Below are positions 8,859-30,513 of a DNA stretch of 64,000 nucleotides, piece by piece. Origin of the DNA: Escherichia coli O157 typing phage 14; the sequence record KP869112; one strand, given 5' to 3'. Below the pieces are notes generated by a model that did no database searches, was not told where the DNA came from, and was given only the letters and a program-made list of their open reading frames with translations. The position numbers were made by a program, and so were the translations under genes. Positions within the stretch are counted from its first letter, which is position 1. Each line of letters begins with the position of its first letter.

Positions 8859-9155
8859 ATGAAACTTTTTGAGTGGTTTAAAAAGTTTAAATATAAAGCT
8901 GTAGCCATCGTGCCGTGGTCCATTCAGTGGGTTGATGAAGGTGGTCTACCAATACCTGGTGACAAAGATACTGGGTACTGGATTATGATGGAGAACGGGT
9001 TTGGAAAGCGAAAGTATACGTGCACAAACTCTACTCGATCTGCGCTTAATAGAGTGCCTGGTTACAAACTTATGGTTGTGTGGAAAATGTCAGGCGTGCC
9101 TCCAGCTAATGCTCAATTTCTTACTGACAATCCGACCACGGTAGAGGGAGATTGA
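8859..9155 (+). CDS. hypothetical protein (98 aa)
   Basis: ORF in co-directional array. Confidence 0.5.
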   Translation: MKLFEWFKKFKYKAVAIVPWSIQWVDEGGLPIPGDKDTGYWIMMENGFGKRKYTCTNSTRSALNRVPGYKLMVVWKMSGVPPANAQFLTDNPTTVEGD

Positions 9156-16525: not shown

Positions 16526-18049
16526 CACACAATTAGCTACCCGGCTAAAGTGCTGGGAGCACCTATAACACATCTTTCAACTAAATTTCCTACCACCACA
16601 ATCACTTACCTCCCACACATGACTGTTTGCTTGTTTAGTGAGCAGTCATGCCTTGACATTCTTGCCTATCCTGATAAAATTAAGTTCTTCTCTTTTCTTT
16701 TACCGAGTAATTCGGGTTTTCTGTTCTCTTCGGTTTGAAGGGGTATGGAGATACACCTGAGTGAACAGGGTGAACAACCGAACCATTGGCTATGGCATTA
16801 GCATGGCGAAGCGGACGGGTGACGAAAGAGGGGCCGGAGGACACCAGTCACTGCCATATGATATATAGGTGATAACCTGAAGAGTCTGAATAAGTGTTTA
16901 AGTACCAGTCAGAGGAAAAGGTGAATGGTAGCCGAAGGGGGAGGGGGGTTTCTTGTATCTTTAATTTGTATATTATGTATACACTTGTAAACCAACACCA
17001 TCTGAATTTGCTTACCACACAAAGCGGATAGAGACAAATATTACCTATTAAACTTGAATTATTTATAGAAAATACCACAACACCACTTAAGTCTTTGATT
17101 TTACACATAAATCCTACAGATATTCACCCTCCATATTTAACATACTTGTAACATATCTATACCCAACCTGTCTGATCAACTCACCCAACTACATCCTCCA
17201 TATTTCCCCTGTCTGTACTACCCCTGCCCAGCCGGGAGTCCCGTCATATCTGGCTTTCCAGCAAATATCACACCCACAAATATCATTGCCTGAAGAGGGT
17301 TTCATCCCATAATACATGCCTTACCTGAAGAGCGCTTCATACACCACGTAAATTTTTTAATTGACCTGCAATTTTCCCGTCATGACCCCCTGCCCCGCCA
17401 GAGAGGTTGACTTTTCCCACACAGACCTGAAGAGCCAGCCAGAAATATCTGAACAGGTCCAGTTATACCACGATTTTGACCTGACCGACAGGAGTGCCTC
17501 CCTGTCAGGAGCCGGTAGCGACTGGAGTGCTGCCAGGCGGACGAAATGGGAATACTTCTCATTCTTATAATAATTCTCAAATATCGAGGCAGTGAGGCAA
17601 ATTAATAGGTGAGGCCGTTCACACAGTGGCACAACATTTGCAACCTATCTTGTGGGGTGAATGAGAATACCTATCATTGTGAGAATAGTTATCATTACGG
17701 GCAATTTAACATAATACCCATTATGCGCACCACTGGCGATACATACAGGGGTTGATAACATGAGTTACTGTTTACGCACATAACAATTATATTTCTTACT
17801 ATTTGTGTGGGATATAGTTAGCAGCCGATAGATTAGATATTGACCTGTAGACTTCCAACCGTCTAGACGTCTAAACGCCCACACAACAAGGCTTATACAT
17901 ACATCACTGAATGTAAACAGGACCGCAAAAATGCTACCATACAAGCTTGTAAATTTTTCATGCAGCACTTGACAAAGAGGAGGAAAACTTGTCTGACACA
18001 CTGGGCACAACATAACATACTGCAGCACAATATGACACAATAACGACTG

Positions 18050-20572: not shown

Positions 20573-20700
20573 CGGTTTTTATAGTTCTTATATGACAGGC
20601 ACCCCCGGTGATTGTCTCCCCCCGTCGCCAGGTGCCTGCCGTGGAATAAGTATAACAAAAAACAGGACCATTGCAAGCCCTGTTTTGTAGTTTATAAATA

Positions 20701-29261: not shown

Positions 29262-29946
29262 AAATTTATCCTCTTTACTGGTTAGTGCGGTGTTGTTCAC
29301 CTTGTAGGGTAATAATACCATGATTAACCTTGTTGTCAACGACTATTTTAAATTATTTTTATGATAGAATCCACCTGCCGCCCCCGCCAGGTTAACCACC
29401 ATTTTTTCGTACTCTTCTTTATGTTCCAACGCTCCCGCCATAGCCTTTTCAACCAGGGCGATAGCCTCAGCGTCATTAATCGCTACATTTTCCAGGGGAT
29501 CATATTACCTTTCATTTTTGTACCTCCTCTCCAGTTGTTGCCTACCCTATAGCATAGCCCTACCAGGTTTGCAAGCTTTCACTCTCCCCTGCCAGGCTGG
29601 CCCCGCCAGGTCCTGGCAGTGGGCGCACCTGGTTATAATTTTTTTTTTGAAAGGTGTTGACAGCGGCCCCGCCAGGTGGCACAATATACCTATCGAAAGG
29701 ACGGCAGGCACCGGTGACGGGGGAGACAACCACCGGGGATGGGCGCTGCATAAAATGAGAACGGTTATCATTATCATTTAAAAATTTATGCAAAAAATCC
29801 TTGCTTTCTTTGTCCTGTGTGATACTATAATAACAAGCCGGGGCAACAGGGGCCGGGAGACAATCACCGGGCCTGCCCGTTATTCTGCAAACGAGAATGA
29901 TTATCATTCAAAATTCTAAATGAGAACTCCTCACATTTAATAAATT

Positions 29947-29964
29947 TAATTAGCATGCTAATTA
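29947..29964. repeat. 18-bp perfect palindrome TAATTAGCATGCTAATTA
   Basis: Read directly; lies in AT-rich intergenic region. Confidence 0.7.
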
Positions 29965-30019
29965 CCCTCCGTAACAATTTCCTATAAAACAGTATCCCAT
30001 AAAATATTCCCATATAGAA

Positions 30020-30480
30020 ATTTTAAAAATCCATTTCTGAAAACGAAAAATCGATTTCGTCCCCAAAAATTTCAGGTCGAGATCCGGAACGATTTCCAGA
30101 AAATCCGATTCAGAAAACGAAAAACAGATCGAGTACTGAGAAATTTATCGAGAAAAATTTTCAGAAAATCCAAGCCCTGAAATGAAAAGTAGATCGAGTA
30201 CCTGGAAAGCTGCACCGCAACTTCAAGATAGTGGTTAGATTGTTACCATAGAAGGTCAAGGGTAAGTGGAGGAAGTTCTGGTAGAGGGAGGTTAGCATGT
30301 GTGGGAAATCTATAATGGTGGCCTGGAATATGGTGCAAACGATAGGATGAGTTATTCAGCTTGTCGCGCCTACTCTGAAAAATCCATTTTAGTTTTCGAT
30401 CCATTTTCTGATTTTCTAAGAATTTTAAAATATCCAGCCTGGTGAAATATCAAAAGGAGGAAATCCATTTTAGAAATCCC
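30020..30480. repeat. cluster of degenerate direct repeats (GAAAATCC / CTGAAAACGAAAAA / AGATCGAGTAC)
   Basis: At least seven related copies in 460 bp of non-coding DNA. Confidence 0.55.
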
Positions 30481-30513
30481 CCTTATACTTGATATGCCAG
30501 GAATTTTCAAGTA

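Follow-up and report, generated by a model that had tools for sequence, protein, structure and literature searches.

The window analysed here is a stretch of 64,000 nt from Escherichia coli O157 typing phage 14 (KP869112), an rV5-like E. coli myophage of the genus Vequintavirus. Among its genes lies a gap of approximately 1.0 kb (about 29520-30510) in which no conserved open reading frame (ORF) was found, and within this non-coding island two tandem units were identified (29657-29781 and 29801-29911), each with a predicted plus-strand promoter and sharing a GC-rich core of 17 nt and a second motif that resembles operators of the host regulator Fur. An earlier note on this DNA had described the region as being without convincing ORFs, which agrees with the present results, and had put its length at about 1.2 kb, which is somewhat too long.

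All genes neighbouring the units are carried on the minus strand and belong to PHROG families of unknown function without a Pfam domain, and the long gene cluster around the island also encodes DNA polymerase and helicase. The genome map of phage rV5 has a box marked ‘non-coding’ for which no explanation is given, and the origin of replication could not be located there (PMC3606486). The short ORFs annotated in the gap vary among the GenBank entries for close relatives, no frame over the core and second motif was kept between genera (stop-free stretches being short and inconsistent), and a 2-nt indel distinguishes Vequintavirus from Seunavirus across this stretch; a protein-coding reading of the units was dropped on these grounds. 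The region 29300-30500 was matched by 101 phage records over at least 80% of its length, the top matches having approximately 94-96% identity (phages EdH4 and Gotham). Recent capture of the region from a host was also rejected, as no meaningful match was found among 5,426 E. coli genomes. A tblastn search for a Fur homologue in the window with E. coli Fur as the query gave no match.

The second motif and the Fur consensus

The second motif, which the earlier note had recognised in both units, lies within a direct repeat of 33 nt (family D5; 29753-29785 and 29889-29921), the copies of which are 73% identical. It was compared to the 19-bp Fur consensus GATAATGATAATCATTATC by counting matches rather than with a weight matrix, supplemented by a test of bacterial context. 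The box of unit 1 was found to be the sole site in the window with three or fewer mismatches to the consensus (0.03 expected), while sites with at least 15 of 19 matches numbered four against 0.46 expected, the two top-scoring being those of units 1 and 2 (Table 1). The box of unit 2 contains a perfect palindrome (GAATGAT-A-ATCATTC, 29895-29909). Partner matches offset by 6 nt were identified at the clusters of both units and in every related genus. In footprinted Fur clusters of E. coli the sites overlap one another at offsets of 6 (or 3) nt, and 83% of these clusters overlap sigma70 promoters (PMC2189734).

An exact 18-mer from unit 2 (TGAATGATAATCATTCTC) was searched for in one genome per bacterial species and was found at 79 loci of many phyla, 66 of which did not lie within a long ORF. 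Matches among 18 genes flanking such loci included an FTR1 iron permease, two Peripla_BP_2 proteins (siderophore-type periplasmic binding), the Plug domain of a TonB receptor, nicotianamine synthase, ZnuA, four SBP_bac_6/8 binding proteins, an ABC ATPase and a ferredoxin. The SBP_bac_6/8 family includes ferric-iron binding proteins. With the 18-mer thus standing upstream of iron or metal uptake genes in diverse bacteria, the phage motif is indistinguishable from a working bacterial Fur operator. Judged by its sequence, the second motif is a canonical Fur operator, and Fur would be expected to bind at 29751-29781 and 29887-29911. The suggestion in the earlier note that the units could be protein-binding sites fits this assignment. 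The best explanation for both units is that each represents a copy of a conserved iron/Fur-responsive transcription-control cassette and not a folded small-RNA gene, a proposal to which about even chances are given.

Fur-like sequences were also observed elsewhere. A further cluster in the window (17550-17564 and 17657-17699) consists of four overlapping matches of 13-14/19, mostly with 6-nt offsets; it lies in approximately 650 nt without a convincing ORF (about 17110-17760), near a switch in gene orientation (at approximately 15-17 kb). Exact Fur-type 22-mers were found in unrelated viral contigs of IMG/VR (L012, L007, L008, L020, L029 and L033), with L012 carrying four or five tandem boxes (9084-9135 and 9354). 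It may be that Fur boxes are commoner among phage genomes than has been recognised.

Table 1. Features of the two units, of the third core copy and of associated sequences (positions in the window, except for the last line, where positions refer to sequences of related phages)
Feature	Position	Strand	Description
Unit 1 promoter, P(+)u1	29657-29685	+	TTGACA (29657-29662), 17-nt spacer, CACAAT (29680-29685); 10/12, TG before the -10
Unit 1 GC-rich leader	29704-29749	+	Core GGGAGACAACCACCGGG (29721-29737), imperfect hairpin
Unit 1 Fur-box cluster (by sequence)	29751-29781	-	Best 19-mer GATAATGATAACCGTTCTC at 29757-29775, 16/19; members at 29751, 29757 and 29763
Unit 2 promoter, P(+)u2	29801-29831	+	Best -35 TTGCTT (29801-29806), long 19-nt spacer, TATAAT (29826-29831)
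Unit 2 GC-rich leader	29841-29878	+	Core GGGAGACAATCACCGGG (29855-29871), imperfect 13-bp hairpin
Unit 2 Fur-box cluster (by sequence)	29887-29911	-	TTGAATGATAATCATTCTC at 29893-29911, 15/19; 14/19 member 6 nt away (29887)
Convergent promoter-like sequence, P(-)u2	29911-29882	-	TTGAAT (29911-29906), 18 nt, CAGAAT (29887-29882); overlaps the Fur box
Copy 3	20583-20676	-	Promoter TTGCAA (20676-20671), 16 nt, TATACT (20654-20649), then core (20620-20604)
T10 run	29639-29648	+	Directly upstream of the unit 1 -35
AT-rich region	29912-30510	no strand	Contains GATC sites and degenerate repeats of 62-74 nt; follows immediately downstream of the plus-strand promoters
Element of ~75 nt in related phages	L157 1380-1460, L159 1340-1420, L160 1270-1340, L161 1330-1400, L158 1340-1410, L004 1330-1400		

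Promoters, GC-rich core and the question of a structured RNA

Sigma70-type plus-strand promoters are well supported by sequence for both units and occur where the earlier note had placed them (TTGACA at 29657 with a near -10, and TATAAT at 29826). In the relative L021 the -10 of unit 1 is CATAAT, giving 11/12. Homologous plus-strand promoters with 9-11/12 were identified in 16 of the 18 sequences scored, mostly 22-28 nt ahead of the core; the two remaining sequences include the Aeromonas locus, the -35 of which fell outside the extracted sequence. Both the position and the quality of the unit 2 promoter were found to be kept across nearly all related lineages examined. The earlier note had considered the plus strand, where its promoters stand, and not the minus strand, on which the second motif overlaps a promoter-like sequence facing the plus-strand promoter (P(-)u2, Table 1). 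This sequence was read directly from the DNA, its 8/12 being under the cut-off of the promoter scan, and at least five genera share its hexamers, which were seen in GAP31, PVP-SE1, DU_PP_I, 24-2-1 and W70.

Several further elements were observed around the promoters. A GC-rich hairpin at 29586-29622 (CCCCTGCCAGG / CCTGGCAGTGG) has a folding energy of approximately -35 kcal/mol (z -2.7), with the T10 run beginning 16 nt further on. The T10 run resembles an UP element and may also be a weak terminator tail after this hairpin; together, at 29586-29648 just upstream of the unit 1 promoter, they may serve as an UP element, as a terminator for the plus strand, or in both roles. In most genera other than Vequintavirus (L003, L004, L157-L160), a direct repeat, TGTAAAGA(N3-4)TGTAAAGA, immediately precedes the -35 of the conserved promoter. 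This repeat, which is absent from the window, may be an activator site or an UP element. The early-promoter consensus described for Certrevirus is AAAA(N3-4)TGTTGAC(N17-19)TATAAT (PMC7344957). Five CCCCGCCAGGT-like 12-mers (family D2) were identified at 29382-29678, at least two of them in spacers of early promoters. The motif contains CCWGG, the Dcm methylation site.

The core, GGGAGACAA(C/T)CACCGGG, was found in both units as the earlier note had described (from 29721 and from 29855), and in a third, inverted copy at 20604-20620. Exact matches to it in the window number three against 0.18 expected from shuffled sequence, and a profile hidden Markov model (HMM) built from 20 homologues identified exactly three copies in the 64 kb (29835-29895, E-value 2e-15; 20643-20583 on the minus strand, 5e-12; 29716-29759, 1e-5). 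Copy 3, with a profile extent of 20583-20643, runs in the same direction as the genes and is without the second motif or a Fur box, and its core forms part of a strong hairpin (-24 to -26 kcal/mol, z -2.3 to -3.0). The core has a promoter-tied role, perhaps as a 5’ leader element. A scan of IMG/VR with the core alone (CCGGTGNTTGTCTCCC) returned mostly a coincidental stretch in a prophage gene and was set aside, with L082, L097, L101 and L142 being the only hits that looked possibly relevant.

Just 3’ of the core, a GG/CC dinucleotide swap was identified among close relatives in unit 2 (29872-29873) and in copy 3 (20602-20603), as seen in L015, L162 and L097. The identical swap at both places suggests gene conversion between dispersed copies. 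Such exchange would suit repeated modules of the kind known from T4-type phages as PeSLs, promoter/stem-loop cassettes whose main effect here would be to offer sites at which genes are shuffled by recombination. PeSLs, which border variable genes, combine a terminator and a promoter in one composite motif and occur in early-gene regions (PMC4122927), and they are alike in having a short, repeated early promoter and a GC-rich hairpin among small genes of unknown function (PMC2839356, PMC4122927); three dispersed copies, one of them inverted, also fit this comparison. However, three copies were found in a 64 kb early region while PeSLs occur many times per genome, the stem-loop of the units follows the promoter and has no terminator tail, and this explanation does not account for the Fur boxes or for the conservation of one copy across genera at a single syntenic site. 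It is regarded as extremely improbable.

The earlier note had suggested that the units could be structured small non-coding RNAs, and the imperfect stem-loops that it described do exist. The plus-strand fold of unit 1 has an energy of -23.9 kcal/mol (z about -0.45 to -1.3) and that of unit 2 an energy of -27.9 kcal/mol (z about -2.0 to -2.1), energies which are unremarkable, and the pairing was not found to be conserved. Stable hairpins are present in some copies (copy 3 and its orthologues, L025 and DU_PP_I; z -2.3 to -3.5), while folding z-scores are near 0 for unit 1, L015, L082, Mydovirus, L010, ESCO13, PVP-SE1, W70 and 24-2-1. Conservation of the fold was examined for each strand, using three sequence sets and alignments made in two MAFFT modes. 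RNAalifold predicted no pairs on either strand of the alignment of 20 sequences, and better-aligned subsets gave merely -0.7 to -2.4 kcal/mol. The GG/CC swap changes one side of the stem in close relatives and breaks the predicted pairs, with no compensating change. What is conserved is primary sequence, consisting of GAGACAAnCACC followed by CTGCCCGTnATTCTGCAAATGAG, which runs into the first box; the GC-rich core is conserved as sequence and not as structure.

Searches for other hallmarks of an RNA gene were negative. No intrinsic terminator was found between 29690 and 30030 on either strand, and Rfam at permissive thresholds gave no match with E<=1 in or near the units or in eight homologous loci. 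A tRNA or tRNA-like reading was considered owing to a Klebsiella phage record in which a ‘tRNA-Met’ is annotated over the homologous sequence (OY978796), and was rejected, as ARAGORN identified no tRNA there or in the window. In that record (L003; OY978796.1, 10349-11044) the annotated tRNAs for Lys, Ile and Met were not found by ARAGORN, so that these annotations look misplaced; the ‘tRNA-Met’ lies exactly over the Fur-box and core cassette.

A small-RNA gene, from which each promoter would drive a short, GC-rich, structured RNA acting in trans, is consistent with the real-looking and conserved promoters, the near-invariance of the units within the genus and the stable hairpins of unit 2 (z -2.1), copy 3, L025 and DU_PP_I. 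The G-rich, Shine-Dalgarno-like GGGAGACAA is located in a loop, and a transcript from the putative minus-strand promoter would pair over 17 nt with the leader of copy 3. The missing terminators after both units, the lack of an Rfam match and of a conserved fold, the near-zero folding scores of most lineages and the uncompensated swaps argue in the other direction, as does conservation that follows the sequence and not the pairing partners. This reading is considered unlikely, and the suggestion of structured RNAs in the earlier note is not supported; an unstructured or processed transcript from the units is possible. Compared with Fur-repressed small RNAs of the RyhB type, the units are alike in having a Fur box over a promoter for a non-coding transcript (putative here), but they show no sequence similarity to these RNAs and have no terminator, conserved fold or Rfam match.

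A different element, of approximately 75 nt (ACCGGCGATCcACCTTCC ... CCAGG-loop-CCTGG ... GTTAGCCCCGCCTTTtCGCCGTGGGGTGGCG), was found to be nearly invariant in Seunavirus, Mydovirus, Certrevirus, Avunavirus, Phapecoctavirus and W70 (Table 1) and absent from Vequintavirus. It was assigned approximately -17 kcal/mol by RNAalifold, has no Rfam match and is preceded in ESCO13 by a strong promoter (TTGACA-17-TATACT). As a candidate structured RNA, this element is more convincing than the two units.

Conservation beyond Vequintavirus and the adjacent AT-rich region

In a sensitive BLAST comparison with distant relatives, alignment within the island was confined to 29853-29926. This segment was identified at 80-89% in Seunavirus (GAP31, PVP-SE1), Mydovirus (Klebsiella), Certrevirus (Pectobacterium, Cronobacter), Avunavirus, W70 and Aeromonas phages, while in Phapecoctavirus (Stephanstirmvirinae) a longer stretch aligns at approximately 72-76%. 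The layout is invariable and consists, in the direction of the genes, of AT-rich repeats, one to four Fur-type palindromes, a -10-like (C/G)AGAAT, the core and a reverse-complemented sigma70 promoter. The conserved promoter would thus fire on the plus strand of the window, towards the core and boxes. In relatives the palindromes are mostly 29-36 nt apart (range 23-58), each having partners offset by 6 nt.

Unit 1 is present neither in the divergent relative L082 nor in any of the other genera, which indicates that unit 2 is ancestral and that unit 1 is a duplication specific to Vequintavirus. Among four genomes of the genus, 29655-29935 was found to be almost invariant, whereas 29500-29654 is full of substitutions and indels; the contrast with this variable left flank indicates that the units are under constraint. 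An exception to the wider conservation was observed in Certrevirus phage phiTE (L242; JQ015307.1, 60897-61101), which has approximately 200 nt where its relative DU_PP_I has an island of 900 nt. As the cassette is missing from the syntenic position, it is either dispensable in phiTE or has moved. A link to the pseudo-ToxI non-coding RNA of phiTE (PMC3475682) was rejected, given that the syntenic 200 nt are without the cassette and that nothing resembling ToxI was found in 35 kb of phiTE. An ORF of 87-88 aa running opposite to the flanking genes (MT.TTLHLMH..WQGGT.HQVASATGLKVET..NL ... FWLGVL.WQENK) was also noted in related islands (L157 1074-1340, L161 1007-1273 and L160 950-1213); it is kept at the island edge in ESCO13, W70 and 24-2-1 and has no homologue in the window.

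The AT-rich region beyond unit 2 is a candidate origin or repeat RNA, with a GC content of 28-33% at 29900-30200. Short repeats such as AAATCCATTT and GATCGAGTAC were observed within it; Tandem Repeats Finder did not detect its degenerate repeats, reporting merely a repeat of 12 nt. A genus-specific repeat family of 65-80 nt occurs at the equivalent position in every related genus (for example ggttctcgatcg...gatcgtatttg). The repeats are wholly different between genera, while the boxes are unchanged, including those of the Aeromonas phages. Constant boxes next to diverging repeats argue for a conserved host protein as the binder rather than a co-evolving phage protein.

The same region could be regarded as the replication origin of the phage, at which the palindromes would bind a phage initiator while the tandem promoters supply activating or priming transcripts into an AT-rich unwinding region. 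This is an attractive reading because the tandem promoters face the AT-rich repeats and because related genera have arrays of four palindromes. Up to four palindromes, at their mostly regular spacing, stand beside a GC-poor stretch with degenerate repeats and GATC sites; the gap is a conserved non-coding one inside the gene cluster that encodes the DNA polymerase and helicase, and the map of rV5, for which no origin was located, shows its ‘non-coding’ box (PMC3606486). The boxes, however, equal bacterial Fur operators and stay constant between genera while the repeats change, GC skew was found merely to track gene orientation, and no initiator was identified. An origin is considered quite unlikely as the explanation of the units, and is compatible with Fur binding, in that both could hold.

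Transcription-activated origins include the primary origin of T7, with two tandem promoters and an AT-rich region, and oriF and oriG of T4, while the origin of lambda has four iterons. The island is alike in having tandem promoters directed into AT-rich repeats and an array of palindromes. It differs in that its palindromes match the operator of a host regulator, its role as an origin being that of a candidate from sequence.

The boxes could also act as a decoy, whereby the clusters of the replicating genome would titrate Fur and de-repress host iron uptake, thus supplying iron-dependent enzymes on which the phage relies. Multicopy Fur boxes de-repress the Fur regulon in vivo, which is the basis of the Fur titration assay (PMC2189734), and the window has three clusters (17657-17699, 29751-29781 and 29887-29911), with up to four boxes in the islands of related genera. 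A fixed position of the boxes relative to promoter and core would be needless for a decoy, yet this arrangement is strictly conserved, and the number of boxes varies from one to four. A decoy, although conceivable in principle, is judged to be very improbable.

Proposed iron-responsive control and its significance

The cassette proposed here would combine a strong plus-strand promoter of the host sigma70 type with a GC-rich leader of approximately 50 nt and one or more host Fur operators, these operators overlapping a weak promoter-like sequence that points back at the plus-strand promoter. When iron is plentiful, Fur-Fe2+ would occupy the boxes and shut the leftward promoter, and may also hinder rightward transcripts approximately 50-90 nt past their start. 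When iron is scarce, Fur would leave the boxes and the balance of the two competing, convergent promoters would shift. The possible outputs are three. More transcripts could run leftward into the early genes (29515 and lower), an antisense RNA could act against the plus-strand transcript, or the cassette could regulate those plus-strand transcripts that enter the AT-rich repeats (29912-30510); leftward and rightward outputs could also be combined. Both the firing of the minus-strand promoter and the choice among these outputs are presumed from the arrangement of the elements.

Several points weigh against such a cassette. The boxes lie downstream of the well-supported plus-strand promoter (approximately +50 to +90), a position that is unusual for Fur repression and weak in E. 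coli examples (PMC2189734). The minus-strand promoter overlapped by the boxes reaches just 8/12, and the conservation of its hexamers may merely reflect their membership in the array of Fur hexamers. Copy 3 has a promoter and core and no box, which suggests that the function of the core is independent of Fur. Initiator sites of a replication origin would likewise account for arrays of up to four palindromes next to an AT-rich region. Furthermore, no report of Fur control in a virulent phage was identified in the literature searched, nor was a transcriptome of an rV5-like phage.

Fur-repressed sigma70 promoters of E. coli (fhuA, fhuF, iucA and ryhB, among others) share with the units the 19-bp consensus, the central palindrome and the 6-nt overlaps, and the phage boxes overlap hexamers that are promoter-like. 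The phage sites differ from these in being located in a virulent phage with no iron gene downstream, in that the best nearby promoter faces the boxes, and in forming arrays approximately 30 nt apart in related phage genera; they are also predicted from sequence. A phage-borne promoter under host Fur is reportedly the stx1 promoter of Shiga-toxin prophages (Calderwood and Mekalanos, 1987), to which the units would be alike in this respect, as predicted here. That promoter belongs to a temperate prophage and has a single operator and a toxin gene, whereas the present cassette is non-coding and conserved across subfamilies of strictly lytic myophages. Face-to-face promoter pairs are known from coliphage 186 (pR/pL), P2 (Pe/Pc) and IS10 (pIN/pOUT). 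These are alike in having convergent promoters approximately 50-100 nt apart with overlapping transcripts and possible interference; in the phage units, by contrast, one promoter is well supported, there is no repressor or transposase gene, and the weaker promoter would be gated by a metal sensor of the host.

A broader form of this proposal, which is decidedly doubtful, is that virulent enterobacterial and Aeromonas myophages possess a conserved array of Fur operators with which an iron-dependent early decision is made, through antisense gating or titration of Fur. In the first version, a Fur-gated antisense promoter would oppose a primer or activator transcript running into the adjacent AT-rich origin, following a logic like that of ColE1. 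In the second, titration of Fur by the amplified boxes would turn on iron uptake by the host, to the benefit of the phage.

Fur boxes and Fur-repressed promoters are textbook elements of bacteria. The result of chief interest is a cassette with Fur operators, as judged by sequence, that several genera of virulent phages have in common; no report of such a conserved cassette in strictly lytic phages was found in the literature searched. If the proposal is true, it would offer a first handle on the 1-kb non-coding island, which may contain the replication origin. If Fur binds, the iron status of the host would be sensed directly by rV5-like phages and by those of their relatives that infect Salmonella, Klebsiella, Cronobacter, Pectobacterium and Aeromonas. 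The rV5-like phages are widely used in biocontrol and in therapy cocktails, and as the supply of iron is limited both in the gut and in infected tissue, iron sensing could affect the performance of these phages there.

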